A DNA stretch of 64,000 nt from Gemmatimonadales bacterium (GCA_035699205.1 DASSBA010000081.1:2273-66272); one strand, 5' to 3'; shown: positions 8,367 to 37,053, counted from the first letter of the stretch. Numbers and translations: made by a program. Notes: generated by a model from the letters alone, not told the origin.

Positions 8367-11240
8367 ATGGCAGGTCCCACACTCCGTCTGTTCACCCTTG
8401 GCGGCCTCACCCTCGAGCGGGATGGGCAACCGATCGGCGGCATCGGCAACCGAAAGGTGCCGCTGATCCTGCTGGCGCTCCTTGCGGGGCACGGCGCGCA
8501 GGGGATCAGCCGGGACAAGCTGGTGGCCTACCTCTGGCCCGATAGCGACGAGGCGAGGGCCCGCAACAGCCTCAAGCAGGTGCTGTTCGGCCTGCGCCGG
8601 GAGCTGGGCGATTCGCTGCTGATGTCGGCCGGTCCCACCCTCCGCCTCGACCCATCCGCAATCGGATCCGATCTCGCCGACTTCGACGCCGCTCTCATGG
8701 CCGAGGATTTGGCCGCCGCGGCTGAGCTGTACCGCGGTCCCTTTCTGGACGGATTCTTCCTGCCGGGTCGTCTCGAGCTGGAGCGCTGGATCGAGACCGA
8801 TCGTCAGCGGCTCCATCGTGTACACGTGGAGAACCTCGTCCGCCTGGCTCGGCGGGCCGACGCCGAGCACGACCTGGTCCTGGCGGTCCGCTGGTGGCGG
8901 CAGGCCTCCGCCGCCGACCCGTTCAGCGCCGATGCCGCCCTCGGCGCCATGCGTGCGCTGGCCGCGACCGGCGACCGCGCCGGGGCGCTGGAGCACGGCC
9001 GGTCCTACGAGGCCGCCCTCGCCGCCGAGCTGGGGCTCCCGGCCGAGCCCGCGGTCCGAGAGTTCGCCCGATCCCTCCGGATCCCCGACCCGGCGCCGCC
9101 GGTCGCCATCGGGGCACCGCCGGCCGCCGATGCCTTCCACCCGCAGGCGCTAGCCGCGGCAATGGCCGTCTCGACCCCCCTGGCAGTGCCGGCCGGCCGG
9201 GCGCGACCGGTGGCGGCGCGCTGGACCGGCTACCTCCTCCCGCTGATCCTGGTGCTGGCCATCGCCGGCGCCGTGCTGCTGCTGCGGAGCAGCGCGCCGG
9301 ACGCCGTCGCCCCGGGCGCGCCCGCGACGCTCACGGTCCTGCCGTTCGAAGCGGTGGGTGACGCGAGCGGCGATCTCGGACGCGGCCTCGATGCGCTCCT
9401 CTCCTCCGGACTCGACGGCGTGGCGGATATTCGAGCGGTGCCGACCGTCCCGGCGGGTGGCAGGGGCGGGACGCCGGGTGGATTGACCGGCTCGGCGGCC
9501 TCGGAGACGGCCCGGCGCTCCGGCGCCCGGCTCTACGTGGTAGGCCGACTGGTGGCGGATCGGGACAGTCTGCGCGCCACCGCCTCGCTCCACGACCGCG
9601 CCAACGCCGACCGCGAGGTGAGCCGCGCCCAGGCGACGGTCTCACGGGACGAGCTGTTCACCATGGCGGACGAGCTCGTGCGCGGGCTGGTGGCCGACCG
9701 GGTCGGCGGGCCCGGCGAGCGGCTGGCCAGGGCCGCCGCGGTGAGCACCCGGTCGCTGCCGGCGCTCAAGGCCTACCTGGACGGTGAGCAGCGGCTCCGG
9801 CACGACGAGTACGTCGCCGCCGTCGATGCCTTCAACCGCGCCGTCAGGGCCGACAGCGCATTCGGGCTGGCCTATTACCGGCTCAGCGTGGCCGCGGACC
9901 GGGCGGGACGCGACGAGACGTCCCTCTGGGCCGCCCGCCTGGCCAGCCGGTTCAGCGCCGGCCTGTCCGAGCACGACCAGCGCCTGGTGCTGGCCTATCT
10001 CACCGTCCGGAACGGGCGGCTGGACGAGGGCGAGCGGATCTATCGCGGGATCGTCGCGGACTACCCGCAGGACGTCGAGGCCTGGCTCCAGTTGGGCGAT
10101 CTGCTGCTGCACGGCAATCCGTTGCGCGGACGCTCCGCGCTCGAGGCACGCGAGGCCTTCGAACGGGTGCTGGCGCTCGCGCCGGACCAGGGCGACGCGC
10201 TCGTGCCGCTCGCGCGCATCGCCTCGCTCGAAGGGAAGCGCACCGAGGCGGACTCGCTGCTGCGCCGCGCGGAAGCCACCGTGCCCGCGGCCGCCCTCGA
10301 CCTCCGGGCCATCCGTACCTTCGCGCTGAACGACCGTCCCGGCCACGAGCGGGCGACGCGCGATCTCCTGGCCGACCGGTCGATTCTGCCCCGCCGGCTC
10401 GCGTTCGACGTGGCGGTGAAACTCGGCGATCTGGCCGGCTCGGCGCGCTTCGCGGGACTCCTCGTCCGCGCGTCCGCCACCTGCGACGTGCACGCGATGG
10501 GGCGGCGGATGCTGGCGCAGGTCGCGATCGCGCACGGACGGCTCGGTGTGGCGGACGGCGAGCTCGCGCGCGCGGCGCCGTGCGATCCGGGGGCAGCCCT
10601 GGAACACCGCGCGCTTCTGGCCGTGCAGCCGTTCGCGAGCCCGGACACCTCCGACCTCGAGGAGCTCGCGCGCGACCTCGGCGTCGCGGCCGACTCGGTG
10701 CTCGGGCACCCGGCGCGCGAGTACTACGCCGGTCTCGTCGCGATCGGCCTCGGCGATAGCCTGACCGCCGCCGCCGACGCGCGCGCACTCCTTGCCGCAG
10801 GGGATTCGACGGCCACCGGCGACCTGTCCCGCACGTTCGGCCGGAGTCTGCGCGCGCGGGTGCTGTGGCACGCCGGTCGCCCGGCCGAGGCACTGGCGGA
10901 GCTCGAGGCGGCCGGATGGGAGCGCACGGCGCGACTCTCGGTGGCGGAGGCCTCGGACCGCTATCTCCGGGCGGAGCTGCTCCACCGTCTGGGCAGGGAC
11001 GAGGAGGCGATCGGGTGGTATCGGTCCATCGCTCAGCGGGCGTCCTACGAGCTGGTGTATGTGGCGCCGGCCGAGCGCCGGCTCGCGATGATCTACGACG
11101 CCACCGGGGATGAGGCGGCCGCGCGTGAGCACTACCGGCGGTTCATCGACCTGTGGCGGGAGGCGGATCCGGAGCTGCAGCCGGCGGTGGGGGCGGCGGA
11201 GCGGCGGCTGGGGGAGCTGGAGGGGGCGACGGCGGGATGA
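8367..11240 (+). CDS. Membrane-anchored SARP/BTAD-family transcriptional regulator with periplasmic TolB-like and TPR modules
   Basis: N-terminus LRLFTLGGLTLERDG...LVAYLWPDSDEARARNSLKQVLFGLRREL (OmpR-type wHTH plus BTAD). One TM segment (WTGYLLPLILVLAIAGAVLLL). Then a TLTVLPFEAVGD... module and TPR-like repeats. Confidence 0.8.
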   Translation: MAGPTLRLFTLGGLTLERDGQPIGGIGNRKVPLILLALLAGHGAQGISRDKLVAYLWPDSDEARARNSLKQVLFGLRRELGDSLLMSAGPTLRLDPSAIGSDLADFDAALMAEDLAAAAELYRGPFLDGFFLPGRLELERWIETDRQRLHRVHVENLVRLARRADAEHDLVLAVRWWRQASAADPFSADAALGAMRALAATGDRAGALEHGRSYEAALAAELGLPAEPAVREFARSLRIPDPAPPVAIGAPPAADAFHPQALAAAMAVSTPLAVPAGRARPVAARWTGYLLPLILVLAIAGAVLLLRSSAPDAVAPGAPATLTVLPFEAVGDASGDLGRGLDALLSSGLDGVADIRAVPTVPAGGRGGTPGGLTGSAASETARRSGARLYVVGRLVADRDSLRATASLHDRANADREVSRAQATVSRDELFTMADELVRGLVADRVGGPGERLARAAAVSTRSLPALKAYLDGEQRLRHDEYVAAVDAFNRAVRADSAFGLAYYRLSVAADRAGRDETSLWAARLASRFSAGLSEHDQRLVLAYLTVRNGRLDEGERIYRGIVADYPQDVEAWLQLGDLLLHGNPLRGRSALEAREAFERVLALAPDQGDALVPLARIASLEGKRTEADSLLRRAEATVPAAALDLRAIRTFALNDRPGHERATRDLLADRSILPRRLAFDVAVKLGDLAGSARFAGLLVRASATCDVHAMGRRMLAQVAIAHGRLGVADGELARAAPCDPGAALEHRALLAVQPFASPDTSDLEELARDLGVAADSVLGHPAREYYAGLVAIGLGDSLTAAADARALLAAGDSTATGDLSRTFGRSLRARVLWHAGRPAEALAELEAAGWERTARLSVAEASDRYLRAELLHRLGRDEEAIGWYRSIAQRASYELVYVAPAERRLAMIYDATGDEAAAREHYRRFIDLWREADPELQPAVGAAERRLGELEGATAG

Positions 11241-11304
11241 CCGTGGAACATGACCGGCAGCGGTGAACGCGGGCGACCGGACGCGAAGCCGGGCCAGTGC
11301 GAAA

Positions 11305-11330
11305 AAGGGCGGCCCGGGAGGGCCGCCCTT
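11305..11330. terminator. Bidirectional stem-loop between convergent genes
   Basis: AAGGGCGGCCC-GGGA-GGGCCGCCCTT, an 11-bp perfect stem flanked by A-run and T-containing sequence. Confidence 0.6.
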
Positions 11331-11361
11331 CTCGTGTGTTGCACCGGCGTTCGCCGGTGGG

Positions 11362-12735
11362 TCAGGGCTTCACATTCGTCTTCACTTCCGCGGGAGCATT
11401 GAAGGTCTCGACGTCGCGCCCCACGACGCCGGTGATGCCGGATGCATCGGTGCTGCTCACCGTGATGATCAAACCGCCGGTCTTCGTCACCGACAAGTGG
11501 AACGTCGCATAGCCGGGTTGCAGCGGGCCGCCGGCGGTGGCCGAGGCCGACTTCGTGATTGCCGAAACGTCGTCCGGCCCGGTGTTGTCGCACTCTTTGT
11601 TCCCCGCCAGCGCGGTGTTCTGCCCGTTGTTGTTCGCCCCATGCATGTACACGCAGACGCCATTCACTCCGAGGCCATCGTCGGTCTTGGCTCGGACGAT
11701 TACTTCGTAGGGCATCTTGCGAACGGACATGGTGGCCGGTGGTGCCTTCACATAGCTGAACGTGATGCTCGGCACGGGCTTGTTGGCGAACTCGCTCCTG
11801 AGGCCACCGGCCGAGCCGCCGATGGTCCTGGTGCCGGCGAACAGCGGCTGCGGGGTGAGGAATTTGACCAGCCGCTGCACGAGGACCCGCGCGCCCCAGG
11901 ACTGCGGGATCGAGCTGATCGAGGCATCGCAGACGTAGTCCGCGTCGTGATAGGCCAGCACGCCGAAATCGGACTCGCTGACCATGCTGGTCGGCTCGCT
12001 GCTCGCGAGGCACAGTGCGACGGTGGCCCCGTCGCCGCCGAACGGCACGGAGGGCCGGATTGCCTCCCACTGGTACTCGCTGGTCGAATAGCCACCGATA
12101 TCCGCGCCCGCCAGGGGAATCCCATAGATCAGCGCGCGCTCGGAGAGAACCTGGCTCCAGGGGAGCGCAGTGCCTGGCGCAACGAGATCGTTGGGATCCT
12201 GCGGAGGAGCCACTCCCGATAGCCGCTGGGTTACGCCGACCGTTGTGCGCGACACCACCGGTGTGTTGCCACTGGCCGGGCCGCGAACCTCGTAGGCACC
12301 CGGCACCGCCGGATCAAGCGACGGAGTGAAATCGAGCGCGTCGAAGTTGGACGGGAAGTCGCTCGAGGTGCCTGCCTTGTACATGCACTTGATCAGCTCC
12401 TTCGTCAGCTCGGAGCCGGTGCTGGCGGCCGTGTTCCCGCCCTTGACTGCAGCGGCGATCAGCTCCATGACGTTGAACCCGCTGGCCTGTGCGGCGGCAG
12501 TGTATGGGCTCGCGGTCATCTCGTCGACGAAGCCCCTCGCCTGCTGAGTCGTCGCCGGGTCGGTGAAATAGCCGCTGACGAGCGATGGGAACGCACTGCT
12601 GTTGCAGGCGAGGGTGGGGGCCGGGCGGAACTCCGGCTGTCCGGGAGCAACCGGACCCGAGTCATTCCGGTCCGCGCACGCGATCACCAGCATCCCGACC
12701 GCGATGGGGAGCATGCCAAGAACACGGCGAGCCAT
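11362..12735 (-). CDS. Secreted lipoprotein of unknown function (C-terminal Ig-like beta domain likely)
   Basis: MARRVLGMLPIAVGMLVIAC has a lipobox. AAGGAG lies 9 nt upstream of ATG 12735. No recognisable catalytic motifs. Confidence 0.7.
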   Translation of the reverse strand: MARRVLGMLPIAVGMLVIACADRNDSGPVAPGQPEFRPAPTLACNSSAFPSLVSGYFTDPATTQQARGFVDEMTASPYTAAAQASGFNVMELIAAAVKGGNTAASTGSELTKELIKCMYKAGTSSDFPSNFDALDFTPSLDPAVPGAYEVRGPASGNTPVVSRTTVGVTQRLSGVAPPQDPNDLVAPGTALPWSQVLSERALIYGIPLAGADIGGYSTSEYQWEAIRPSVPFGGDGATVALCLASSEPTSMVSESDFGVLAYHDADYVCDASISSIPQSWGARVLVQRLVKFLTPQPLFAGTRTIGGSAGGLRSEFANKPVPSITFSYVKAPPATMSVRKMPYEVIVRAKTDDGLGVNGVCVYMHGANNNGQNTALAGNKECDNTGPDDVSAITKSASATAGGPLQPGYATFHLSVTKTGGLIITVSSTDASGITGVVGRDVETFNAPAEVKTNVKP

Positions 12736-12807
12736 GGTATGACACTCCTTGATGGTCCTCGGCAAGGAGGACTCCCGAAGGAAACCTGTGGTATGAGAGA
12801 GCAATCA

Positions 12808-12836
12808 CATATAGCAGGTTACAGGCCGCTTGTCGA
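12808..12836 (-). promoter_or_regulatory. Sigma70-like promoter for the lipoprotein gene
   Basis: Minus strand reads TCGACA-17 nt-TATATG (-35 at 12836-12831, -10 at 12813-12808). Confidence 0.4.
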
Positions 12837-12979
12837 GGGGTGGTCGATGGGCCGAACCCCGTGGCCCTGTGGCATCTAGGTCATTCCTGCCCATCCCGGC
12901 TTTACCCGGGCGAGGCCCCCACGCCGCAGGGCGTGGCGGACGATCGACACCACCGCCCTCCGGCCCCCGGGCCGGACCG

Positions 12980-15610
<2,631 letters not shown>

Positions 15611-15684
15611 ACAGCCTTTGGGCGGGAGCGAAGCGTGAAAGTAAGCGGAGGGAAGCGCCTCCGGCTATGCCCTGTGCGGCGTAC

Positions 15685-16515
15685 TCAGCCGACCATCACC
15701 GCCGCCAGCGCGTCCCGCATTGCGGCCGCCGACTGCCACCGGTCCTCGGGTGCCTTGGCCAGCGCGCGGCTGATGCCCGCCGCCAGTTCGGCCGGGATGC
15801 CGGGCTGGAGGGTCCGCAGGTCGGGCGCCGGCTGGTTGAGATGCATCTGCAGCACCACCGCCTCGTTCCGGTGCACGAACGGCGGCTGGCCGGCCAGGCA
15901 CTCGAACAGCACGCAGGCGAGCGAGTAGATGTCGCTCCGGAGATCGATCTCCTTGAGCGCCGTGATCTGCTCGGGGCTCATGTAGGTCGACGTGCCGACG
16001 GCGATTCCCGAGCGCGTCAGCCGGTCGCTGCCGGAGGCCCACACCGCGCGGGCAATCCCGAAGTCGAGCAGCACCGCGCCGCCCGGAGAGACCACCACGT
16101 TCTCGGGCTTCACGTCCCGGTGGATGATCCCGTGTCCGTGCGCGTGCTCCAGCGCGTCGAGCAGATGGTCCGCCAGGCGGAGCGTATCCCCGACGGAGAG
16201 CCGCCCCCGCTGCGACATGAACTCGCGCAGGGTGGCACCCTCGACGAACGTCATGACGTAATAGACCAGCCAGTCACGCTCACCCGAATCCAGCAGATGG
16301 GCGATGTGCGGATGGTCCAGCTGCGATGCCAGCTTGATCTCGCGCAGGAACCGGTCGGCCGCGACACTGACCAGCAGCTCCGGATGCAGGATCTTGAGCG
16401 CGACCGGCTCCCCTCCCGGCTGGCGGGCCAGGAAGATGCGGGCGTTTCCGCCCTTGCCGATCTCGCGCTCGACCTCGTACTGCCCCTGGAACGCCTGGCG
16501 GACCAGTGCCAGCAT
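15685..16515 (-). CDS. Ser/Thr protein kinase, catalytic domain only (about 276 aa)
   Basis: Motifs IGKGGNARIF, VALKIL, HRDVKPENVVV, DFGIA and MSPEQ. ATG 16515 chosen; the longer track ORF (to 17016) would overlap the upstream gene and hairpin E3. Confidence 0.8.
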   Translation of the reverse strand: MLALVRQAFQGQYEVEREIGKGGNARIFLARQPGGEPVALKILHPELLVSVAADRFLREIKLASQLDHPHIAHLLDSGERDWLVYYVMTFVEGATLREFMSQRGRLSVGDTLRLADHLLDALEHAHGHGIIHRDVKPENVVVSPGGAVLLDFGIARAVWASGSDRLTRSGIAVGTSTYMSPEQITALKEIDLRSDIYSLACVLFECLAGQPPFVHRNEAVVLQMHLNQPAPDLRTLQPGIPAELAAGISRALAKAPEDRWQSAAAMRDALAAVMVG

Positions 16516-16587
16516 GTCGCGGCGAATGAGCCGGTCCTTGTGGGGGACTCCCGAATGGTTGCAGTGCGGGCGGCTTCGCGCAAGATC

Positions 16588-16674
16588 GAAAGGCGGAAAG
16601 GCGGAAAGGCGGAAAGGGACAAACCCTTCCCTGCGTGTTTCCTTTCTGCCTTTCCGCCTTTCCGCCTTTCCCCC
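16588..16674. repeat. Tandem-unit hairpin element E3 (8-nt unit GGCGGAAA / TTTCCGCC)
   Basis: Arms 16588-16617 and 16641-16670 are complementary at 29/30 positions, each arm about 3.5 tandem units. Sits directly after the stop of the M50-HlyD gene. Confidence 0.85.
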
Positions 16675-18725
16675 TACAGCAGCAGATCCGTCCGCACCCG
16701 CTTCCGGATCCCCCACCAGATGGATCCCCACACGTTCGATTCCCGGATGGTGACGCTCGCCTCCCCAGTCATCCCCGGCCGCCACCGCGCCGGGCCGCCC
16801 ATCCCGATCCGCGCCTCCACCGTCCCCGAGCCGGCCGACGAGAGCTGCGCCACCCCCGTGACCCGCGCGTCCATCGTCCCGCCGTCCGCATGGAACACCA
16901 GCCGCGCCCGCTGTCCGGCGCGCACCCGCGTGGCCCCCGCGCCGGTGAGCGCGATCCGGACCTCCAGCGAATCCGGTTGTCCCAGCTCCATCAGCCCCTG
17001 GCCAAGGCTTACCCACTGGCCCGTGAGCTCCTCCGGCCGCCGGGTCACCACCACCCCGGCGGTCAGCGCCCGGACGGTCAGCGCCTGCTGCTCCACGGTC
17101 ATCCCCTCGAGCCGGGCGGCGTCGGTGGCGCGCTCGGCGGCCAGTCGGGCGACCTCGGACGTCCGCCCGGCGGCGCGCGCCTGCGCCTCCCGGGCCACCA
17201 GCGAATCCACCCGCCGCCCCGCGGCCAGGGCCGCGCGCTCCAGGTCCAGGTCACGCACCTCGACCAGCGGCATGCCCGACTCCACCCGGGTGCCCTCGCG
17301 TACGTACACCCGGGAGACCAGTCCGCTGTCGGGGGCGGTGAGCGGCAACGACAGCGCGGGCGCGACGGCGAACTGCCCGGTCACCGTGATCGGCCGCGGC
17401 ACGAGCGCGCCGAGCACGAGCAGCATCGCCGCCCCCGCGAGCAGCCGGTCGCGGAAGCGGCCGGTGTCGATCCTCGCCCGGAGCTCGCGCCAGCCGGCCG
17501 CGACCGTCTGGGCCGCGCTCCGGACCGCCTGCCGGGTCATCAGCCAGACGGCGATGGCGAAGAGCACGCCGCCGGCGAGGCCGAGCGCGCCGTCGAGCCA
17601 GCCGTACACGGTGCCGGCCACGACCAGCATGATCGAAGTGATATAAACCGCCGCCAGCACGGCGTAGACGATGAAGATCCGCTGTTCCCGCTCGTCGGCC
17701 GGCGGGGCGGGAACCTCGAGTCGGAATACCCGCGTCTTCACCAGCCAGCCGAGGTGCGCGAAGGCACGCTGCCGGAGGTTCGGCACCTCGAGGTAGTCGC
17801 TCAGCGCGAAGTAGCCGTCGAGCGGGATCAGCGGGTTGGCGTTCATGACGACGGTGGTGATCCCGCCGAAGAGCACGGCGGAGAGCGCGATGTGCGAGAC
17901 CAGCGTGTCCGGCTCCGCCGCCCACCAGACGATTGCCGCGAGGCTGGCCGCGACGAGCTGGATCCACGAGCCCGCCGCGGTCACCCAGAGCCGGGCCTTG
18001 AGCTCGGGAAACGTCCACGCATCGTTCACGTTGCAGAAGAATGCCGGCTCGAAGTACAGCAGCATCGCGCCGATCTCGTGCACCTGTCCGCCGAAGTGTT
18101 TGCAGGTATATCCGTGCCCCAGCTCGTGGACCACGATGATGGCCGTGGCCGTGGACCAGAGCACGAACAGCTCCCAGGCGGAGTAGCGGAAGTGATAGAA
18201 GTCGCCGAACGCCGCCATGAGCTCGGGCCATTTGACGGCGACGACGAGCAGGTAGATGGCGAACAGGAACACCGAGGCGACGAGGAAGCCGCGGGTGAAC
18301 ATCCAGCGGATGTAGGGGATGGTGCGGTCCATGAAGTGATCGGGATCGCCGACCGACCAGCGGAGCCGCAGGATATCGCCCTGGAACGGTCCCGTCGCGA
18401 GACGCTGCCGGCGCTGAGCGCGGAGCCGTTCCATCATGAGCACGGAGCGTTCACCCAGCGTGCGCTCGAGCAGCCCCATCGTCTTGAGCTTGTTCGCGAA
18501 CCCCTCGACCGCCGCGGCCGAGACCCGGAGCCCGGCCGCGACCAGCTCCTCGGCGATCTCGGCCGCGCTGCGGGTGCCGTCGAATTGTCGAATGACGTTC
18601 ACTTCCACCGGCCGGAATCGGAAATACTTCCTGGTCGTGGGGTCCTTCAGGATGAAGCTCTGCTCGCCGCGGTAGGTCTGCTCGACGAGCGTCAGGTCGG
18701 CGCGGAGCTTCGGCGCGGTGGTCAC
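16674..18725 (-). CDS. Fusion protein: PqqD/RRE-like N-terminal domain, M50 (site-2 protease) membrane metalloprotease, C-terminal HlyD/MFP-like domain
   Basis: HELGH zinc motif and NANPLIPLDG motif within a multi-TM core. N-terminus FRFRPVEVNVIRQFDGTRSAAEIAEEL...GLLE. C-terminus has lipoyl-like, coiled-coil and barrel MFP pattern. GTG start overlaps the upstream TGA (GTGA). Confidence 0.8.
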   Translation of the reverse strand: MTTAPKLRADLTLVEQTYRGEQSFILKDPTTRKYFRFRPVEVNVIRQFDGTRSAAEIAEELVAAGLRVSAAAVEGFANKLKTMGLLERTLGERSVLMMERLRAQRRQRLATGPFQGDILRLRWSVGDPDHFMDRTIPYIRWMFTRGFLVASVFLFAIYLLVVAVKWPELMAAFGDFYHFRYSAWELFVLWSTATAIIVVHELGHGYTCKHFGGQVHEIGAMLLYFEPAFFCNVNDAWTFPELKARLWVTAAGSWIQLVAASLAAIVWWAAEPDTLVSHIALSAVLFGGITTVVMNANPLIPLDGYFALSDYLEVPNLRQRAFAHLGWLVKTRVFRLEVPAPPADEREQRIFIVYAVLAAVYITSIMLVVAGTVYGWLDGALGLAGGVLFAIAVWLMTRQAVRSAAQTVAAGWRELRARIDTGRFRDRLLAGAAMLLVLGALVPRPITVTGQFAVAPALSLPLTAPDSGLVSRVYVREGTRVESGMPLVEVRDLDLERAALAAGRRVDSLVAREAQARAAGRTSEVARLAAERATDAARLEGMTVEQQALTVRALTAGVVVTRRPEELTGQWVSLGQGLMELGQPDSLEVRIALTGAGATRVRAGQRARLVFHADGGTMDARVTGVAQLSSAGSGTVEARIGMGGPARWRPGMTGEASVTIRESNVWGSIWWGIRKRVRTDLLL

Positions 18726-19699
18726 GGCGTGGCTTTCACCACCTCTTCGCCCGCCGCGATGCCGCTCACCACCTCGACCCGGTCGCCGTCGAGGTCCGCG
18801 CCGAGGACGACGGCGCGCAGCGCGGTGCGGCCGTTCTCCTGCACGAGGGCAAAGCCGTCCCGGGCCACCGCCGCGCGAGGAATCGCCAGCACCCGCCGCC
18901 GCTGCGCGCCAAGCTGGACGGTGACGCTGCTGCCGGGCGTGAGCGACGAGCCGGAAGCGAGCTGCAGCACCAGTTCGCGCGTCCCGCTGGCCGGATCGAG
19001 CACGGGCGAGGCGCGCACCACGCGCGCGCCCGCGCTCGCCCCGCCGGCGGTGAGCACCCGGGCCTCGGCGCCCACGCGAAGGCCGGCCGCCGCGCCCTCG
19101 GGCACGTGGACCGTGGCCAGGACCGGCGCCAGCGCGGTAACGCGGAACAGCGAGTCGCCGGCGTTGACCAGCCGCTGGACCCGGGCCATCCGCGCCGTGA
19201 CCACCCCGGCGAACGGCGCGACGATCCGGGTGAGGTCGTAGTCCCGCTGCGCCTGGCGGAGCGCCAGCTCGGCGTCGCGGTGCTCGAACTCCACCTGCTC
19301 GCTGTCCGCCCGCGTGACCACCCCCGCGGTGGCCAGGGCGCGCTGGCGCTCGACCCGCTGCGACGCGTTGGCCGACCGCTCGCGCGCCTGCGCGAGGGCG
19401 ATCTCCTGATCGGTGCTCTCGAGCCGGGCGAGCGGCTGGCCCGCGGACACCCGGCTGCCCATGTCCACCAGGATGCTCTCGACGATGCCCGACGACCGCG
19501 CCACGACCGCCGCGTCGTGTTCCACGTACAGTTGCGACGGCAGGGTGAGCGGCCGGTCCACCGTGGTGCTCTCGGCGGTCGCCACCGCGCCGGAAGGAGT
19601 GGCTGCGAGGGATGCGGAGGCGGCGGTCTGGACCGGAGGCGCGACCTCCCCGCCGCAGGCCGCCAGGAGGAGCGTCACGGGAACGACGAGGCGGGTCAT
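18722..19699 (-). CDS. HlyD-family periplasmic adaptor (membrane fusion protein) lipoprotein
   Basis: MTRLVVPVTLLLAACGG has a lipobox. MFP pattern (LARLESTDQEIALAQA..., IVAPFAGVVTA). ATGA overlap with the upstream gene. Confidence 0.85.
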   Translation of the reverse strand: MTRLVVPVTLLLAACGGEVAPPVQTAASASLAATPSGAVATAESTTVDRPLTLPSQLYVEHDAAVVARSSGIVESILVDMGSRVSAGQPLARLESTDQEIALAQARERSANASQRVERQRALATAGVVTRADSEQVEFEHRDAELALRQAQRDYDLTRIVAPFAGVVTARMARVQRLVNAGDSLFRVTALAPVLATVHVPEGAAAGLRVGAEARVLTAGGASAGARVVRASPVLDPASGTRELVLQLASGSSLTPGSSVTVQLGAQRRRVLAIPRAAVARDGFALVQENGRTALRAVVLGADLDGDRVEVVSGIAAGEEVVKATP

Positions 19700-21630
19700 G
19701 ACCAGATCCTCCACCAGAGAAGCCGGGCCCAGCGCGATGGCGCCCGGAGGAGCCGGGTGGCCGCCGATGCGGGATCGGTGAGCACGCGGACGTACGCGGC
19801 CATGCTCGGCCTGAGGACTCCGTCCGGGTTGGCGACGACGGCGCGGACCGGATAGCGCACCCCGGCGCCCGCCGTGTCCGCCGCCGCCACCGGCGCGATC
19901 GAACGCACCCGCCCCGTAAAGGTCCGCTGCGGGACCGCGTCGACCCGGAGCCGCACCTCCTGCCCTGGCCGGACTCGGCCGATGTCCTGCTGCGCCACCC
20001 CGAACTCGAGCTCGAGGGAATCGGTGCGGCCGATCGTCAGGAGCAGGTCGCCCTCTTCGAGCGAGCTCCCGACCCGGTCCTCCACGTGCGGCGTGAGGAC
20101 GACGCCGCTGACCGGGGCGCGCAGCGTGGTGAGGTCGACCTCCTCGTCCAGCAGCGCGACCTCGCGCCGGAGCGCGTCGCCGCGGATCCGCTGCAGCCGC
20201 TCCTCCGAGGGATCGCCCCGGCTGGCGGCCAGCGCGGCGAGCCGGTCGGCCGAGGCCGCCTCGGCGGCCGTGGCCTCCCGGTCCGCGCGCAGACTGGTGG
20301 CGCGGAGGTAGGCCACCGGCGTCCCCCGCGACACCAGGCTCCCCTCGCTCACCGGGAGTCGCTCGACCACGCCCGCCACGAGCGCGCGCACCGGGGCGTA
20401 GGCCGTGGCGCGGAAGCTCGCCGCCTGGCCCGGGACGCGGAACGGCCAGCGAACCAGGAGCAGGAGCCCCAGCGCGACCGCGACGGCCGCCGCGTAGATC
20501 TGGATTCGCCGCTTGGGCATTGCACGGAGCGCCTCGCGCCTGGCCGCCAGCGCGCCGAGCGCGTCCACCATCGGCACCTGGTGATACAGCTGCGCGTTCC
20601 GCAGCGCCACCGCGGTCTGGTTGGCCAGGATCGCCGCTACCTCGCGCTGCGTGGGCGTGGCGAAATCCACGGTGGCCGACTCGAACACCAGGACCCCGAG
20701 CACCCCCTCCTCGTCCTTGAGCGGCAGGTACAAGCCGCTCTCCACGCCGTCGGTTTCCAGGTCCTGGCCGAAGATGGTCACGAACATCCGTTCGGCGTCG
20801 GAGCCCGGGTAGACGCGCTCGCTCAGATACAGCGGCTCGCCCCGCCCGGCGGCCCACTCCGCCCGGGCCACCAGGTCCTGCAGCTTGGGATCCTTGGGGT
20901 CGACGGTCTCCTCACCCGCCACGGCCCGAACGTCGCAGCGCCCCTTCTCGTAGAGCGCGACGGCGGCCCGGTCGAACGGGAGCGCGCGGGAGGCGAGGTT
21001 GACGACTGACTGGAGCACGCGGTCCAGGTCGAGCGTCGCCGTGATCTCGCGGCTGATGTCCAGCAGCAGCGCGAGGTCCCCGGCGCGCTTCTCGGCGCCG
21101 TGAAGCTGTGCGTTCCGGAGAGCCAGGGCGCCGGTGGCGGCCAGCCCCTCGAGCAGCTCGCGGTCATGCTCCTCGAACACGCCGGAGCCGGTGAGCTTAT
21201 TGGTGACCTGGATGGCGCCGACCGTGTTGCCGTTGACCACCATGGCCGTGGCCATGACGTTCACCGCGATGGTCTCACTCGGGTGGTCCAGGTTCGCGTC
21301 GAACCGTGGATCGGCCGTTGCCTGGGTGACGATGGTCGTCTTCTGCTGCTGCGCCACGTCGCCCACGAACCCGGTCCCGACCGGCACTTCGGCACCGACC
21401 AGCTGATCCCCGCGTCCGCCGATCGCGATCCGGCACCGCAACACGTCACCGTCGGCGATCCAGATCGAGCCTCCCTCCGCGCCGAGCGCGGCGAGGACGC
21501 GGTGAAACACCTTCGGCAGCAGCTCGTCGAAGTCGAGCGACGCGCCGAACTCCAGGCCGATCGAGTGGAGCAGCCGGAGACGCTCGACTTCTTCGCGCAG
21601 CTCGTCGGTCGAGGTGGTGGGAGCGCTCAT
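19696..21630 (-). CDS. Tandem-GAF cytoplasmic sensor fused via a TM segment to a HlyD/MFP-like periplasmic domain
   Basis: Two GAF-like blocks (each ending ...ALRNAQLH/LY). TM segment IYAAAVAVALGLLLLV. Then an MFP pattern (LRAPVSGVVLT..., RLRVDAVPQRTFTGRV). Confidence 0.75.
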   Translation of the reverse strand: MSAPTTSTDELREEVERLRLLHSIGLEFGASLDFDELLPKVFHRVLAALGAEGGSIWIADGDVLRCRIAIGGRGDQLVGAEVPVGTGFVGDVAQQQKTTIVTQATADPRFDANLDHPSETIAVNVMATAMVVNGNTVGAIQVTNKLTGSGVFEEHDRELLEGLAATGALALRNAQLHGAEKRAGDLALLLDISREITATLDLDRVLQSVVNLASRALPFDRAAVALYEKGRCDVRAVAGEETVDPKDPKLQDLVARAEWAAGRGEPLYLSERVYPGSDAERMFVTIFGQDLETDGVESGLYLPLKDEEGVLGVLVFESATVDFATPTQREVAAILANQTAVALRNAQLYHQVPMVDALGALAARREALRAMPKRRIQIYAAAVAVALGLLLLVRWPFRVPGQAASFRATAYAPVRALVAGVVERLPVSEGSLVSRGTPVAYLRATSLRADREATAAEAASADRLAALAASRGDPSEERLQRIRGDALRREVALLDEEVDLTTLRAPVSGVVLTPHVEDRVGSSLEEGDLLLTIGRTDSLELEFGVAQQDIGRVRPGQEVRLRVDAVPQRTFTGRVRSIAPVAAADTAGAGVRYPVRAVVANPDGVLRPSMAAYVRVLTDPASAATRLLRAPSRWARLLWWRIWS

Positions 21631-21703
21631 GGAGGTGCTTGGTGGCTCGGCGTGAACGAAAGGGCCCCGGCCCCCAGACGAACGGGGAGCCGGAGCCCGG
21701 ATC

Positions 21704-21724
21704 GGCGCCCCGTTCCGGGGCGCC
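21704..21724 (-). terminator. Stem-loop downstream of small ORF A (possible attenuator or processing site)
   Basis: GGCGCCCCG-TTC-CGGGGCGCC, a 9-bp GC stem, 16 nt after the ORF-A stop. No clear U-tract. Confidence 0.4.
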
Positions 21725-21739
21725 GCGAGAAGATCGCGA

Positions 21740-21871
21740 CTAGTTGAGCCGCATCGGCGCGATTTTCTCTTCGAGCTCTTCGACGCCCAGCTCGACGTCC
21801 TTGGACGGAACCGGCTTCTTCGGCTGCTGTTCGGGAGTCTTGGTCCGGGACTGCTCGTCGTGCTTGCTCAT
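21740..21871 (-). CDS. Small ORF A, 43 aa, candidate precursor peptide
   Basis: MSKHDEQSRTKTPEQQPKKPVPSKDVELGVEELEEKIAPMRLN. Shares the ELxVEELExxIAP block with ORFs B and C. Confidence 0.55.
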   Translation of the reverse strand: MSKHDEQSRTKTPEQQPKKPVPSKDVELGVEELEEKIAPMRLN

Positions 21872-21924
21872 GATAGCGCTCGTTTCGTCGGAGGTCGAGG
21901 GGTCAGGGGGCGCCGGATCCTGAT

Positions 21925-22077
21925 CTACTTGTTCCAGAGCTTGCCCGGCGCGATGCGGGCCTCGAGCTCCTCGACCGAGAACTCCACCGCGTCGGCGTCC
22001 TTGCCGGTGGCGTTACGGATGGTGGCCTTCTGCTCGGGGGTCAGCTCGATCCGGAGATGGTCCTTGGCGTTCGACAT
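21925..22077 (-). CDS. Small ORF B, 50 aa, candidate precursor peptide
   Basis: MSNAKDHLRIELTPEQKATIRNATGKDADAVEFSVEELEARIAPGKLWNK. AGGAG lies 6 nt upstream of the ATG. Full-length paralog of ORF C at 31328-31477. Confidence 0.65.
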   Translation of the reverse strand: MSNAKDHLRIELTPEQKATIRNATGKDADAVEFSVEELEARIAPGKLWNK

Positions 22078-22142
22078 GGCGTGCTCCTGGGTGACGAAGG
22101 GCTGGCGGTGTGGCCGACAGGGCCGGCGAACAACTGGAAGCG

Positions 22143-22175
22143 AAGCTAGCTGGCCTCCGTGAAAAGTCCGTGAAT
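22143..22175 (-). promoter_or_regulatory. Heptamer direct-repeat (11-nt period) activator-type promoter of small ORFs B/A
   Basis: Minus strand reads ATTCACG-GACT-TTTCACG-GAGGCCAGC-TAGCTT. The same architecture occurs upstream of ORF C. Confidence 0.6.
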
Positions 22176-22196
22176 GCGTACTTGCCCTTCCGGGAA

Positions 22197-24485
22197 TTGA
22201 CGGTACGTTCTACCTGTCCTCCCCAAGGACCGCCCCTGCACGCCTTCGCCCTCCGCCTGCTCGGAGCACCCGCCCTCGTTGCCCCCGAGGGGGGTCCGGC
22301 CGCGCCCGTCCCAGGCGCCAAGCCTATGGCGCTGCTCGCCTTCATGGCTCTCGAGCCGCGGCCCCACAGCCGCGAGTCGCTGGCCGGCCTGCTGTGGGGG
22401 GAGTCCCCCGAGTCCGAGGCTCGGGCCTCGCTGCGGCAGGCGCTCAAGCAGCTCCGCGAGGTGCTGGGCGACCGGCTTCGCGCCGACCGGACACTGGTCG
22501 AGCTCGCGGCTCCGCTCGCCTGCGACGTCCTCGAGTTCCGCCAGGCGGCGGAAAGCGAGCCGGCCCGGGCGGCCGGCTTCGAAGTCCCGGCCTTCCTGGA
22601 GGGCTTCTCGGTCCGCCACGCGCCGCTGTTCGACGAATGGGTGGCCGCCACCCGGGTCGCACTTCTCCGTCAGTTTCACCAGGTGCTCGGCCGGCTGGCG
22701 CGCGACGCGATGGGCCAGTGGCGCTGGCGTGACGCGGTCGAGCTGGCCGACCGGTGGCTGGCCAACGATCCGGTTTCCGACGAAGCGGCGCAACTCGCGG
22801 TGGAGGCCCGCTATCTCTCGGGCAATCGAGGCGCGGCGCTCGCCCGGTTCGGCGAGTATCGGGCGCTGCTCGCGCGCGAGATGGGCTGCGAGCCGAGCCG
22901 GGCGCTCCAGGCCTTGGTGCGCCGCGTGGAGGCCGACCGGGGCGGAGCCGAACCGCGGCCGATCACCGACGAATGGTACGTGCACGCCCCCGCCTTCGAG
23001 GCGAGCCTGGTGGGGCGCGAGGCGCAGTGGAATTCGCTGACCGGCGCCTGGAAGCGCGCGGCCCGCGGCCACGCCGGCATCGTGCTCGTCGAAGGCGAGT
23101 CTGGCGTGGGCAAGTCGCGGCTGGCGGACGAGTTCCTGCGCTGGGCCGTGGCCGAAGGCGCCACCGTGCTGCGCGGGCGAAGCCACGACGGCAGCCTCGG
23201 CATCCCCTACGAGCCGGTGGTCGAAGTGCTGCGCGGCGCGCTCGACGCGCCTGGCCTGGCCGCGACCTCCGCGGAGTGGCTCGTGGAGGCCGGCCGCCTC
23301 CTGCCGGAGCTTCGGGAGCGCTTCCCCGGCCTTCCCGCCGGAAGCGAGCCGGATGCGTCCGAGGGTTGGCGGCTCTCCGAGGGCGTGGCCCAGGTCCTGG
23401 CCGCCATCGCGGCCGAGCGTCCGCTCGTCGTTCTGATCGACGACCTCCAGTGGTGCGACGAGGATAGCTGCAATCTGCTTCGCTTCCTCAGCCGGCGCCT
23501 CGAGCGGTCACCGGTGCTGTGGCTCGGGCTCCTGACCCTCGGCGAGGTCGAGCGCGACGCGCCGGCCGCCCGGCTCTGCCGGGTGCTCCGCGCCAAGGCG
23601 CATGCGGAGGTCGTGTCCCTCGGCCCGCTGAGCGAGGAGGAGGTGTGGCAGATGGTGCGCGAGATGGGGCACGTCAGTGCGCCCACGGGCGGCCGCCGCT
23701 TCGCCGGCCGCCTTTTCGGCATCACGGCCGGCAATCCGTTCTACATCATCGAGCTGCTGAAGACCATGTTCGCGCAGGGACTGCTCGCGATGGAGCAGAA
23801 CACCGGGGAGTGGACGGTGTCGCCGGAGGTGGTCGGCGCCGGATGCGAGCTGCCGGTCTCCCAGACGGTGCAGGCCGCCATCGCCGAGCGGGTCGAGCGG
23901 CTGCCCGACGAGCTCCGCGACGTGCTGATCACCCTGGCGGTGAGCGGCGTGGGGTGCCGCCCGGACGTGCTGTCCCACGTCCACGGAATCTCGCGCCTGC
24001 ACGCCGCGGCCGACGGGGACGCCCTGGTACACCGGCGTCTGGCGGTCGAGGAGGCGGGCACCTACCGGTGCGCCCATCCGGTCATCGCGCACCTGGTGCG
24101 TGATGGGCTCACCGCCTCCCGCCGGCAGGAGGTGCACCGGAGTCTGGCGCTCGCGCTGGGGCTCGTGCTGCGGCCCGAGGAGGCACCTTCCGCCGCCGGC
24201 GAGTTGGCCCGGCACGCCGACCGGGGCGGCGAGCCCGGCCTGGCATATCGATACGCGCTGCTCGCCGCCGAGGGAGCGGTGTCGCGCTACGCGTACACGG
24301 AAGCGCTGTCCTGGCTCGACCTGGCGGCCACATCCGCGCGCGGCGCCTCCGAGAGCGAGGTCGTGGACCAGAGGACCGCGGACGTACTGGAGAGGGCGGG
24401 GTGGCGCGAGGCGCCGCGCGGGACGCTGGTGCCGGTGACCCGCGAGATCGTCACCGAGGATCTGGATCTGCGCGTCCGCGGATAA
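22197..24485 (+). CDS. SARP/AfsR-like regulator: wHTH-BTAD, P-loop ATPase, C-terminal helical repeats
   Basis: Motifs FALRLLGAPALV and SLAGLLWGESPESEARASLRQALKQLR, with Walker A GESGVGKSRL. Start uncertain: the track start GTG 22110 would put the ORF-B promoter inside the CDS, so TTG 22197 is chosen. Confidence 0.75.
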   Translation: MTVRSTCPPQGPPLHAFALRLLGAPALVAPEGGPAAPVPGAKPMALLAFMALEPRPHSRESLAGLLWGESPESEARASLRQALKQLREVLGDRLRADRTLVELAAPLACDVLEFRQAAESEPARAAGFEVPAFLEGFSVRHAPLFDEWVAATRVALLRQFHQVLGRLARDAMGQWRWRDAVELADRWLANDPVSDEAAQLAVEARYLSGNRGAALARFGEYRALLAREMGCEPSRALQALVRRVEADRGGAEPRPITDEWYVHAPAFEASLVGREAQWNSLTGAWKRAARGHAGIVLVEGESGVGKSRLADEFLRWAVAEGATVLRGRSHDGSLGIPYEPVVEVLRGALDAPGLAATSAEWLVEAGRLLPELRERFPGLPAGSEPDASEGWRLSEGVAQVLAAIAAERPLVVLIDDLQWCDEDSCNLLRFLSRRLERSPVLWLGLLTLGEVERDAPAARLCRVLRAKAHAEVVSLGPLSEEEVWQMVREMGHVSAPTGGRRFAGRLFGITAGNPFYIIELLKTMFAQGLLAMEQNTGEWTVSPEVVGAGCELPVSQTVQAAIAERVERLPDELRDVLITLAVSGVGCRPDVLSHVHGISRLHAAADGDALVHRRLAVEEAGTYRCAHPVIAHLVRDGLTASRRQEVHRSLALALGLVLRPEEAPSAAGELARHADRGGEPGLAYRYALLAAEGAVSRYAYTEALSWLDLAATSARGASESEVVDQRTADVLERAGWREAPRGTLVPVTREIVTEDLDLRVRG

Positions 24486-24497: not shown

Positions 24498-25004
24498 ATG
24501 CCCATCAAGGAATCCATGCTCCCGGAATTCGACCACGAGATGGCCTCGACCCGCCGGGTCCTCGAGCGGGTGCCCGAGAAGCGGGCGTCGTGGCAGCCCC
24601 ATCCGAAGTCGAAGAGCCTCGGCGAGCTCGCCGAGCACCTGGCCGGGGTGCCGGGGTGGGTGGCGTCCATCATCGACGCACCGTCGTGCGATGTCGCGCC
24701 CCCCGAGGGGCGGTCCGCGAGCCCGCCGACGTTCGAGTCCTCCGCGGAGCTGCTCCGCCGGTTCGACCGCAACGTCGCCGCCGCGCGCGCGGCGCTCGCC
24801 GGCAGGAGCGACGCCGACCTGATGACGCCCTGGACCCTCAAGCGCGGGGGCCAGGACCTGCTGACCATGCCGCGCGCGGGCGTGTTCCGCACCCTGCTGC
24901 TCAATCACATGATCCACCACCGGGGCCAGCTCACCGTGTACCTGCGCCTCAACGACGTGCCGCTGCCGATCGTCTACGGGCAGACGGCCGATGAGCGCTG
25001 GTGA
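24498..25004 (+). CDS. DinB-family (DinB_2) metal-dependent four-helix-bundle protein
   Basis: Motifs LGELAEHLAG and LLNHMIHHRGQLTVYLRL. Confidence 0.8.
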   Translation: MPIKESMLPEFDHEMASTRRVLERVPEKRASWQPHPKSKSLGELAEHLAGVPGWVASIIDAPSCDVAPPEGRSASPPTFESSAELLRRFDRNVAAARAALAGRSDADLMTPWTLKRGGQDLLTMPRAGVFRTLLLNHMIHHRGQLTVYLRLNDVPLPIVYGQTADERW

Positions 25005-25894
25005 TGTCGCGGCCCGCTGCGTTCGCGGTGGCGTGTCTCCTGGTGGGCACGGCGTGCGACTCGCTCAGGCTGCCGGCGCTCCCGGCCCGGGCCGCCACCG
25101 TGCACGACAGCGCCGCGGCCAAGCCGGCGGCGAAGCCCCGACGCGCGGCCACGGACGCCGCGGCGGACCCGGCGCTCGCCGCCGCGCGGTTCGACCAGAT
25201 CCGCCGCGGCCTTCGCCGCCTGGTGGCGGCCGAGGAGAGCTTCTACGCCGAGAACGGGGTGTACACGGAGGAACTGAGCCGCGTCGGGTTCGTGCCCGAG
25301 GGAGAGACCGCGGTGCGTTTTCTCTGGCTCTCGCGGGACGGATGGGCGGCGAGCGGCACCCATCCTGATCTGCCGGGCCGCGATTGCGTCATTTACGTCG
25401 GCCGAGCGCGCGGCGCGCCGACGACGCTCAAGAACGTGCGGTCGGGGAGGGAGGGGGTGCCCGTCTGCGACGCATCGCCGTCCGCGCGGCCGGCTGCACG
25501 CGTGCCGACCCGGACGGCCGCGGCGCCGACCGCGCCCGCGCCGGCGCCGGAGCCGGCGCCGCCGGACACGGGGAGCGCGCTCGACGCGGTGGACCCCTCG
25601 GTGCAGATGCGGGTCGATCTGCGCAACCTGGTCCGGTCACAGGACACCTACTTCGGGCAGCAGGGCGTCTACGCCCGCCGCACCGAACCGTTCGCGCTGC
25701 AGTACCTGTGGCACCGCGGCGTCACGATCACCATCCTCGGCGCCAACGACGCGTCGTGGTCGGCCAGGGCGACATCGGCCAGGCGCCCCGGGAAGAGCTG
25801 CGTGATCTGGTTCGGGCCGGTTCCCCACCGCCCGGCCACCGAGGCGCGGCAGCGCGTCCCCGATCAGCCCGGCACGCCGGTGTGCGACGACTGA
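25001..25894 (+). CDS. Lipoprotein with two tandem pilin-like domains
   Basis: Signal peptide AFAVACLLVGTAC (lipobox). Two homologous halves: LRRLVAAEESFYAENGVY...CVIYVG...VPVCD and LRNLVRSQDTYFGQQGVY...CVIWFG...TPVCDD. Confidence 0.6.
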   Translation: MMSRPAAFAVACLLVGTACDSLRLPALPARAATVHDSAAAKPAAKPRRAATDAAADPALAAARFDQIRRGLRRLVAAEESFYAENGVYTEELSRVGFVPEGETAVRFLWLSRDGWAASGTHPDLPGRDCVIYVGRARGAPTTLKNVRSGREGVPVCDASPSARPAARVPTRTAAAPTAPAPAPEPAPPDTGSALDAVDPSVQMRVDLRNLVRSQDTYFGQQGVYARRTEPFALQYLWHRGVTITILGANDASWSARATSARRPGKSCVIWFGPVPHRPATEARQRVPDQPGTPVCDD

Positions 25895-28085: not shown

Positions 28086-28100
28086 GCCAATTTCCCCCTC

Positions 28101-28769: not shown

Positions 28770-28804
28770 AGCTACCCGGCTGACCACCGCTCCCCGCTCA
28801 CCTC

Positions 28805-29704
<900 letters not shown>

Positions 29705-31204: not shown

Positions 31205-31263
31205 ACCCCAGCCTACACTGGCGGACCGAAGATTCGGTGAAGCGCGAATGAAACCGCCGAAAT

Positions 31264-31327: not shown

Positions 31328-31477
31328 TTACTTCGGCTTGGCCGTCATCGGCGCGATCCGCTCCTCGAGCTCCTCGACGCCGAGCTCGATTGCCCGGGCG
31401 TCCTTCCCCGTGGCGGCCTTGACCTGGGCCTTCTGCTCTTCGGTCAGCTCGATGCGGATGTGATTCTGGTCGGACAT
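31328..31477 (-). CDS. Small ORF C, 49 aa, paralog of ORFs A/B
   Basis: MSDQNHIRIELTEEQKAQVKAATGKDARAIELGVEELEERIAPMTAKPK. AGGAG lies 6 nt upstream of the ATG. Corresponds to the C-terminal part of track ORF 31328..31759. Confidence 0.65.
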   Translation of the reverse strand: MSDQNHIRIELTEEQKAQVKAATGKDARAIELGVEELEERIAPMTAKPK

Positions 31478-37044: not shown

Positions 37045-37053
37045 GATCGCTCC

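Follow-up and report, generated by a model that had tools for sequence, protein, structure and literature searches.

Daptide precursors carry the leader motif ELExMEAP, with a proline at position −1, and a site-2 protease that bears an RRE fused to its N-terminus removes their leader (bioRxiv 10.1101/2023.03.08.531785). In the epipeptide system, the M50 protease EpeP is thought both to cleave and to export EpeX (PMC10885120). SARPs have been described as actinomycete regulators that classically control antibiotic clusters; their sites follow a rule of direct heptamers spaced by 11 or 22 bp, with the −10 element 8 bp away from the 3′ repeat, and AfsR is phosphorylated by AfsK (PMC10936776). We analyzed a 64,000-nt stretch from a Gemmatimonadales soil bacterium (GCA_035699205.1 DASSBA010000081.1:2273-66272; hereafter, the window), whose region 8367-24485 had been interpreted in a first-pass annotation as a cassette for the production, export and sensing of peptides. 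It contains what is probably a system of the RRE-M50 leader-peptidase kind under SARP control, with an uncharacterized and widespread trio of adaptor and protease genes. Full-text literature searches found no specific description of such a system, in line with the first-pass annotation, which knew of none with this composition; every gene that it listed is found in the window.

The comparison set consists of 80 Gemmatimonadales loci, relatives of the window proteins being searched by tblastn; the related sequences all come from Gemmatimonadales metagenome-assembled genomes. As the G+C content of the window is 72%, real genes were chosen by the phase of the third-codon G+C (GC3), and domains were assigned with Pfam and NCBIfam profiles. 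The invariant core comprises a SARP-ATPase regulator, one to three peptides, and three genes encoding a GAF-HlyD protein, a lipoprotein adaptor and an M50-HlyD fusion. The adaptor is kept in 72 of 73 loci, GAF-HlyD in 59 of 59, a precursor peptide in 57 of 58, and the divergently transcribed regulator in 49 of 49. Production and processing of the peptides are well supported, and we consider it probable that the conserved unit as a whole is a system for leader-peptide production, processing and probable export, with a regulation specific to Gemmatimonadales. The coherent production and processing cassette seen earlier therefore stands, without the 957-aa regulator and the 457-aa lipoprotein that had been counted among its members. 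The features of the core in the window, together with an orphan peptide gene, are as follows.

22110-24485 (+): SARP-STAND regulator, 791-aa open reading frame; Trans_reg_C, BTAD (1.2e-11), AAA_16 (3.8e-30)
22143-22196 (−): SARP box of pep1, three heptamers, with the −10-like hexamer TAGCTT
21925-22077 (−): pep1, precursor peptide of 50 aa; GC3 of the open reading frame 0.96
21740-21871 (−): pep2, short-leader precursor peptide of 43 aa
21640-21725 (−): two GC-rich hairpins; RNA fold −60.7 kcal/mol, z = −2.9
19696-21630 (−): GAF-GAF-HlyD protein, 644 aa; GAF (4.7e-27), HlyD_D23 (1.5e-23), transmembrane helix 375-393
18722-19699 (−): lipoprotein periplasmic adaptor of the RND_mfp type, 325 aa; TIGR01730, lipobox LLAAC, MTRLVVPVTLLLAAC
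16674-18725 (−): M50-HlyD fusion, 683 aa; HExxH, match to NCBIfam daptide_HExxH
31330-31476 (−): pep3, a third, orphan precursor peptide found by tblastn outside the reported range

Precursor peptides and their promoters

The precursor pep1 consists of the leader MSNAKDHLRIELTPEQKATIRNATGKDADAVEFSVEELEARIAP and the tail GKLWNK; pep2, encoded 53 nt behind it, consists of the leader MSKHDEQSRTKTPEQQPKKPVPSKDVELGVEELEEKIAP and the tail MRLN. The orphan pep3 (leader MSDQNHIRIELTEEQKAQVKAATGKDARAIELGVEELEERIAP, tail MTAKPK) lies about 9 kb beyond the reported region. It has a SARP box of its own, a strong terminator hairpin (z = −3.6), and orthologues in at least seven related loci (L001, L002, L005, L006, L011, L041, and L061). 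By tblastn, 121 peptide genes were recovered from the 80 loci, with one to three precursors per locus and 115 different tails. The leader is about 43 residues long, with the consensus [F/V]R[I/M]xLTPEQKxQ[V/I]RxATGKDAEAVELSVEELEERIAP. It is acidic (E 17%), and among 115 distinct leaders its positions −8 to −1, E-L-E-[E/A/D]-[R/K]-I-A-P, are invariant or nearly so. The tails are hypervariable, 3-13 residues long (median 7), basic and Pro/Gly-rich (K 15.5%, P 12%, R 8.5%, D+E 1.4%), and devoid of Cys; their last residue is mostly R, K, A, or P, and is Thr in 1 of 115. The precursors are hydrophilic and have no Sec signal sequence. Those of the pep2 type lack the N-terminal block and retain VELGVEELEEKIAP, with a leader ending in ELEE[K/R]IAP that is followed by an M-K-hydrophobic tail. 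The tail GMAYRPWQGLD recurs in L060, L069, L070, and L068 (with a Q-to-H variant in L068) despite diverging leaders. Since such tails are kept across genomes while the leaders diverge, these comparisons suggest that the tail is a functional product.

In a profile search of a protein database, the peptide family comprised at least 4133 sequence clusters, nearly all unnamed or mislabelled as DUF1192. This JGI label is not reproduced by Pfam, and the peptides match no profile of Pfam or NCBIfam. Even in a Longimicrobiales-like contig, about 40 residues of the leader are conserved with respect to Gemmatimonadales. In Gemmatimonadota, a phylum common in soil, an abundant unnamed peptide family is now linked with a defined machinery and promoter. 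Downstream of pep2, the second of the two GC-rich hairpins is followed by UUUCGUUC, and these hairpins likely act as a partial terminator between the genes of the precursors and those of the machinery.

The SARP-STAND gene is divergent from the peptide genes and encodes a winged-helix DNA-binding domain, a BTAD domain, an AAA_16 ATPase (Walker A GESGVGKS) and a C-terminal region of about 300 aa. Its true start is probably GTG 22170, TTG 22182, or TTG 22197. The N-terminus of the protein matches the PDB structures of AfsR (8hvr, E = 2e-5) and EmbR (2fez). Upstream of pep1, the heptamers TTCCCGG (R1, 22196-22190), TTCACGG (R2, 22174-22168), and TTCACGG (R3, 22163-22157) are spaced by 22 nt (R1-R2) and 11 nt (R2-R3), and a spacer of 8 nt leads to the −10-like TAGCTT (22148-22143). 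The box of pep3 has the same arrangement (R2 31552-31546, R3 31541-31535, 8 nt, TAGACT 31526-31521). The putative promoters of pep1 and pep3 thus match the published SARP rule exactly. With at most one mismatch, the motif TTCAC-N6-TTCAC occurs seven times in the window against 0.79 expected, and its only two exact copies are those 5′ of pep1 and pep3. In 1.13 Mb of related loci, a peptide ATG follows 76 of the 88 exact boxes at a distance of 50-90 nt, and the consensus of 89 boxes shows the same 22/11/8 SARP geometry as at pep1. The peptide genes devoid of a box are mostly second in a tandem. Such is pep2, and the earlier statement that SARP-style promoters drive two peptides of the region is to be corrected: the range given holds a single box, which serves pep1.

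Like AfsR, the regulator combines a SARP DNA-binding domain and a BTAD domain with a STAND-type ATPase, the repeats are spaced by 11 and 22 bp, the −10 element lies 8 bp away from the 3′ repeat and, as for the AfsK/AfsR and PknH/EmbR pairs, a Ser/Thr kinase gene is conserved in the cluster. Unlike in AfsR, the ATPase is AAA_16 and not NB-ARC, and no C-terminal TPR is demonstrated in the SARP-STAND protein. The heptamer also differs, being TTCACGG here and TCGAGxx for AfsR, and the targets are peptide genes. Finally, in contrast to the actinomycete SARPs, the phylum is Gemmatimonadota: a canonical SARP-box geometry precedes peptide genes outside the actinomycetes.

Two further observations concern the surroundings of these genes. 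Before the start of hemN (31204-29846), imperfect repeats with an 11-nt spacing (TTCATTC, TTCACCG, TTCGGTC) are followed after 8 nt by TAGGCT (31215-31252, −); these TTCA-type repeats may be a degenerate SARP box at a housekeeping gene or due to chance. On the same strand as the SARP gene, a DinB_2-family gene and a gene for a 297-aa lipoprotein follow it (24498-25894, +). This lipoprotein has the lipobox VGTAC, two internal repeats and no family match; its place beside the SARP gene is kept across most related loci, so that it may be part of the same unit.

The M50 protease and its adaptors

The M50-HlyD fusion is composed of an RRE-like N-terminal domain (residues ~12-82), an M50 domain (HELGH at 200-204, about six transmembrane helices), and an HlyD-type adaptor with an alpha-hairpin at 493-547. 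Its best named profile is NCBIfam daptide_HExxH (daptide biosynthesis intramembrane metalloprotease), with 198 bits over residues 19-407 for a cut-off of 300. YydH/LiaK gives a weaker match (1.4e-9), and the JGI name of the homologues is "putative peptide zinc metalloprotease." In an AF2 model (pLDDT 72.5), the N-terminal domain is beta3-alpha3. A profile of this domain, made of 20 sequences including distant relatives in other phyla, matches the RREs PaaA, TfuB1, TbiB1, and PqqD. Known RREs account for five of its top ten PDB matches (E = 0.0045 to 0.8), and PqqD is the Pfam family matched by most members (8/20). With the full-length model, the top 50 Foldseek hits were all to the adaptor part; the RRE and M50 parts were not confirmed by Foldseek alone. 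The individually weak RRE pieces agree with each other and with the homology of leader motif and protease to those of daptides, from which we infer a cleavage after Pro(−1) that would release the tail.

The likeness to daptides concerns the end of the leader, where ELEERIAP is the same motif as in MpaA (E-L-E-x-x-x-A-P, Pro at −1), the protease, whose putative RRE-like N-terminal domain and M50 domain recall MpaP/DapP, and the presence of several precursor genes per cluster. However, equivalents of MpaB, MpaC, MpaD, and MpaM (a DUF-RRE protein, a dehydrogenase, an aminotransferase and a methyltransferase) are absent from the cluster, and the C-terminal Thr, invariant in daptides, ends 1 of 115 tails; for these two reasons, we conclude that this is not a daptide cluster. 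Moreover, the core has 3-13 cationic residues where that of daptides is a hydrophobic helix, and the protease carries a fused periplasmic adaptor and has two further adaptors as partners. The conserved leader spans about 40 residues whereas the daptide study describes an 8-residue motif, and the host is a diderm of the Gemmatimonadota whereas the daptide profile models are named for Actinobacteria and Bacilli (bioRxiv 10.1101/2023.03.08.531785).

Neither daptide-type nor other modification enzymes were found among the cluster genes and the window neighbours, and none is conserved in the 80 loci. A radical SAM gene downstream of the orphan peptide, at 29846-31204, the only one among the scanned window proteins, was considered as a candidate maturase and rejected: it is hemN at equivalog level (456 bits for a cut-off of 325) and is unlinked to the orphan peptide in L002. 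A daptide-type pair of leader and putative RRE-M50 peptidase is used outside daptide biosynthesis and in diderms; here, it appears to release unmodified peptides. With the epipeptide system (YydFGHIJ/EpeXEPAB), the locus shares a membrane M50 protease for a small ribosomal peptide; the YydH/LiaK profile match is weak. It differs by a cluster with no radical SAM epimerase and no ABC transporter, by the leader, and by the RRE and adaptor fusions of the protease.

Three adaptors of the HlyD/MFP type are encoded in the locus: GAF-HlyD, the lipoprotein adaptor and the C-terminal part of M50-HlyD. Their genes, which had been proposed to form an operon, are translationally coupled. The stop codon of the GAF-HlyD gene overlaps the start of the adaptor gene (ATGA), whose own stop overlaps the start of M50-HlyD (GTGA). 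The lipoprotein adaptor scores 152 bits against TIGR01730 (cut-off 94.9). In GAF-HlyD, the two GAF domains are cytoplasmic and the HlyD-type adaptor is periplasmic. The adaptor part of M50-HlyD was modelled with lipoyl, beta-barrel, and alpha-hairpin domains, and the Foldseek matches of the model include MacA and MexA, at E = 1e-14, as well as AcrA and EmrA. The HlyD/MFP-type adaptors recall MacAB-TolC and HlyBD-TolC, and a coupling of leader cleavage to export would recall the C39-ABC exporters. The locus departs from tripartite efflux and type 1 secretion in that its sole polytopic membrane component is the M50 protease and no gene for an outer-membrane factor lies nearby; unlike for the peptidase-containing ABC exporters, the leader is not of the double-glycine type. 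Given the precedent of EpeP, an export of the tail coupled to its cleavage, through a ring of adaptors, is plausible. The trio, which lacks any pump, may represent an unrecognized peptide route across two membranes.

The M50-HlyD fusion family comprises 3138 clusters at 50% identity (E ≤ 1e-30), with members in Longimicrobiales, Blastocatellia, and Planctomycetota. The family covers at least three phyla; the trio itself was observed in two of these and on two contigs of unknown taxon. Five loci outside Gemmatimonadales were compared.

L084, Longimicrobiales-like: all three trio genes; two peptides of this family; Crp regulator, neither SARP nor kinase
L083, Acidobacteriota-related: all three trio genes; no peptide found; two membrane kinases with periplasmic beta-propellers
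L086, taxon unknown: all three trio genes; no peptide found; sigma-54 activator
L085, taxon unknown: GAF-HlyD and M50-HlyD, no separate adaptor; no peptide found; AraC regulator
L081, Planctomycetota: M50-HlyD only; no peptide found; WD40 protein upstream

The variety of regulators beside the trio indicates that the trio is the engine of the system, joined by peptides in Gemmatimonadota, and the gene contents of these loci point to regulators that are lineage-specific additions to it. In three of the loci, tandem arrays directly follow M50-HlyD (L083 10362-10549, L085 11201-11377, and L086 11176-11483). Their periods of 36, 18, and 30 nt are multiples of three, with 5-10 copies, and the contigs end there or just beyond. 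These arrays may encode repetitive peptides or, alternatively, mark assembly break points. The matching position in the window holds a hairpin built from (GGAAAGGC)n and its complement.

Kinases and competing readings

Downstream of the core, the region contains the following features.

16585-16680 (−): long hairpin; −58.9 kcal/mol, z = −7.1
15685-16515 (−): soluble Ser/Thr kinase, kinase domain only, 276 aa; Pfam Pkinase, no transmembrane helix
12980-15610 (−): membrane Ser/Thr kinase with TPR-like region, 876 aa; Pkinase (5.6e-56), transmembrane helix 338-356, weak TPR matches
11362-12735 (−): lipoprotein, 457 aa; lipobox VIAC, no family match
8367-11240 (+): BTAD-TPR regulator, 957 aa; BTAD, one transmembrane helix (~285-310), weak TPR matches

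Two Ser/Thr kinases do lie downstream on the same strand, separated from the operon by a hairpin, as initially annotated. This hairpin, directly 3′ of the M50-HlyD stop, was considered as a conserved attenuator and rejected, the spacer at this place ranging from 40 to 345 nt among loci with long stems in close relatives only. It belongs to one lineage and is no conserved element of the system. The lipoprotein noted earlier is present as the 457-aa protein. Two plus-strand open reading frames with very high GC3 (11762-11938 and 12326-12547) had been candidates for small peptide genes; their third-codon phase is that of the minus-strand lipoprotein gene, of which they are antisense shadows.

The co-occurrence of the components was examined by gene neighbourhood in the 80 loci. 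It holds for the regulator, the peptides and the trio, and the two kinases are looser members. The 276-aa kinase directly follows M50-HlyD in 51 of 60 loci and lies beside the SARP gene in some others; the TPR kinase, found after the short kinase in 28 of 41, is an accessory, fast-evolving member. The 957-aa regulator is within 10 kb in only 3 of 22 loci and is a neighbour in this genome, not a conserved member of the cassette; conservation does not support its role in the circuit in which it had been included. The 457-aa lipoprotein, found in 6 of 22 loci, is likewise a weakly conserved neighbour. No exact SARP box was found upstream of the gene of this lipoprotein in the window. Elsewhere, an exact box precedes a gene for a lipoprotein of about 480 aa (L050, 6645) and a region homologous to the 457-aa lipoprotein (L052, 20791), and in L063 (15678) a box is followed by a sequence similar to that of L050, in which no open reading frame was called. 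In these few loci, the lipoprotein in this position may belong to the regulon.

The 276-aa kinase, with intact catalytic motifs (VALK, HRDVKPEN, and DFG), is the best-conserved protein of the cluster (74-93% identity across loci). Conversely, in the 876-aa kinase, the kinase domain is 85-89% identical among loci whereas the periplasmic part is only 52-68% identical. This is the fastest-evolving domain of the cluster, the other periplasmic domains being 73-91% identical. It is also mosaic and hardly tracks its own kinase domain (r = 0.18). In the pairs L024/L027 and L005/L006, the kinase domains are 84-96% identical and the periplasmic domains 42-64%, which suggests that the sensor part is subject to domain swapping or to strong diversifying selection. 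Homology links the membrane-proximal periplasmic part of the 957-aa regulator to that of the 876-aa kinase, with 26% identity over 191 aa (E = 5e-5); each protein has an alpha/beta domain and a TPR-like region, considered periplasmic as it is placed after the transmembrane helix. The periplasmic module described for these two proteins is thus shared, whereas its "TolB-like" label is confirmed by no profile, with a weak FlgO match only; the TPR matches are all below the Pfam cut-offs.

We propose the following model. The SARP-STAND protein would bind the three TTCACGG-type heptamers and activate transcription of the precursor genes, as suggested by the geometry and conservation of the boxes. 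In the resulting precursor, a conserved acidic leader and a hypervariable, cationic, Cys-free tail would play distinct roles: the leader would be bound by the RRE-like domain of the M50 protease and cut after Pro(−1), by homology of protease and motif with those of daptides, and the tail would be left unmodified. M50-HlyD and the two adaptors coupled to it would form a conduit to an outer-membrane channel and release the tail. The soluble Ser/Thr kinase would modulate the SARP-STAND regulator in the manner of AfsK and AfsR, and the membrane TPR kinase would provide an optional, fast-evolving input. Most probably, the peptides so released would serve as extracellular signals specific to the strain, which would amount to peptide cell-cell communication in a phylum of the Gram-negative type.

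Several points weigh against this reading. The daptide_HExxH score of M50-HlyD is below the NCBIfam cut-off (198 against 300 bits), the sequence matches to RREs are each weak (E = 0.001 to 0.8), and the analogy with daptides is the only argument for a cut after Pro. Genes for modification enzymes could lie in other parts of the genome. Neither the cluster nor the annotated parts of the window contain an ABC, RND, or MFS transporter, which leaves export with no evident energy source, and no outer-membrane factor of the TolC type was found among the scanned window proteins; moving a cationic peptide outward would, in addition, oppose the membrane potential. The action of the kinase on the SARP protein is proposed by analogy, the phosphorylation of AfsR by AfsK providing a precedent for the pairing. 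Outside Gemmatimonadales, no motif-bearing peptide was found beside M50-HlyD in L081, L083, L085, and L086, L084 alone having them.

The first-pass annotation went further and held a closed circuit to be conceivable, the exported tail being an autoinducer for the TPR domains that the 876-aa kinase and the 957-aa regulator expose to the periplasm, with a positive feedback on the SARP-box promoters, that is, peptide quorum sensing in a diderm. We regard this as unlikely. The presence of the TPR kinase after the cluster on the same strand in 28 of 41 loci, the parallel between its mosaic, fastest-evolving periplasmic domain (52-68% against 73-91%) and the hypervariable tails, the two membrane kinases with periplasmic beta-propellers that also adjoin the Acidobacteriota-related trio, and the AfsK/AfsR precedent for pairing a SARP with a kinase would all accord with such a loop. 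Yet this kinase is missing in about a third of the loci and the BTAD-TPR protein is found in 3 of 22, so that TPR-mediated sensing is not supported by conservation. Elsewhere, the engine is accompanied by a regulator of the Crp, sigma-54, or AraC type and lacks a kinase, and the TPR matches are below cut-offs. In a partial Mantel test on 19 loci, with a crude similarity measure and low power, no covariation of tails and TPR-kinase periplasmic domains was detected (r = −0.006, p = 0.52). The loop had been supported by the RRNPP families, with which the system shares short unmodified peptides derived from the C-terminus of a small precursor and the TPR-type receptors proposed. RRNPP receptors are cytoplasmic, however, and their peptides are re-imported; the precursors have Sec signal sequences, and some of the pheromones are processed by the M50 protease Eep. 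Here, the TPR-like regions are periplasmic, the precursors are hydrophilic with no Sec signal, and no window protein matches an RRNPP profile of Pfam or NCBIfam. Because the RRNPP receptors are cytoplasmic, the analogy is weak and does not transfer, and the feedback itself is purely conjectural. A still bolder combination would be a pump-less, envelope-spanning machine, with the M50 protease as inner-membrane component and three adaptors, one of them GAF-gated, that would cut a daptide-type leader and eject strain-specific peptides of 3-13 residues; in Gemmatimonadales, these pheromones would be read by TPR kinases with hypervariable periplasmic parts, which would signal to the SARP regulator. 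We hold it to be slightly less likely again; if true, it would add a new route of export and, for the first time in Gemmatimonadota, a circuit of peptide quorum sensing.

Other readings dispense with signalling. The peptides could be modified natural products or cationic antimicrobials, with enzymes encoded elsewhere in the genome and kinases and SARP controlling production as in the antibiotic clusters of Streptomyces, which SARPs classically control (PMC10936776). The daptide-type leader motif and protease, the cationic, Pro-rich tails, and the hypervariable cores, typical for such peptides, fit this proposal. We nevertheless judge it improbable, since the 80 loci have no conserved modification enzyme in common, the closest radical SAM gene is a genuine hemN (456 bits, cut-off 325), no immunity or ABC genes are present, and the tails, Cys-free, often of 3-7 residues, and ending in Thr in 1 case of 115, are unlike daptides. 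Unmodified tails this short would be unusual for antimicrobials as well. The least likely reading, which we consider very improbable, keeps the peptides in the cytoplasm: the acidic leader would be the functional part, for instance as a partner of the GAF domains or of the SARP protein, and M50 cleavage would be a regulated intramembrane proteolysis controlling an adaptor complex with another role. It would account for the conservation of about 40 leader residues up to the Longimicrobiales-like contig, beyond the 8-residue motif of daptides, for the lack of a transporter, and for the cytoplasmic position of the GAF domains; M50 proteases are, besides, the classic enzymes of regulated proteolysis. 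It is at odds with the pep2-type precursors, which lack the conserved N-terminal block and keep the ELEE[K/R]IAP end and the M-K-hydrophobic tail, and with the tails that are conserved while leaders diverge. The three adaptors, whose hairpins are of the TolC-docking type, suggest instead an envelope conduit, and the RRE together with the leader motif is the signature of product-forming systems.

Other genes of the window

Outside the cassette, genes for a MadB-like AAA ATPase, CoxE/MadC-like VWA proteins, CoxG, and FAD-binding, molybdopterin, and 2Fe-2S subunits (26937-29704, −, and 32665-37560, −) form a cluster of the CO-dehydrogenase or xanthine-dehydrogenase type. This cluster separates the orphan peptide from the main cassette in the window and not in L002. 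An Eco57I-type methylase/restriction protein (1011 aa) is encoded beside a helicase-domain protein (789 aa) at 47375-52643 (−), a probable restriction-modification or defence pair. At 43126-46446 (+), a hybrid histidine kinase of 1106 aa contains GAF, several PAS, HisKA, HATPase, and receiver domains.

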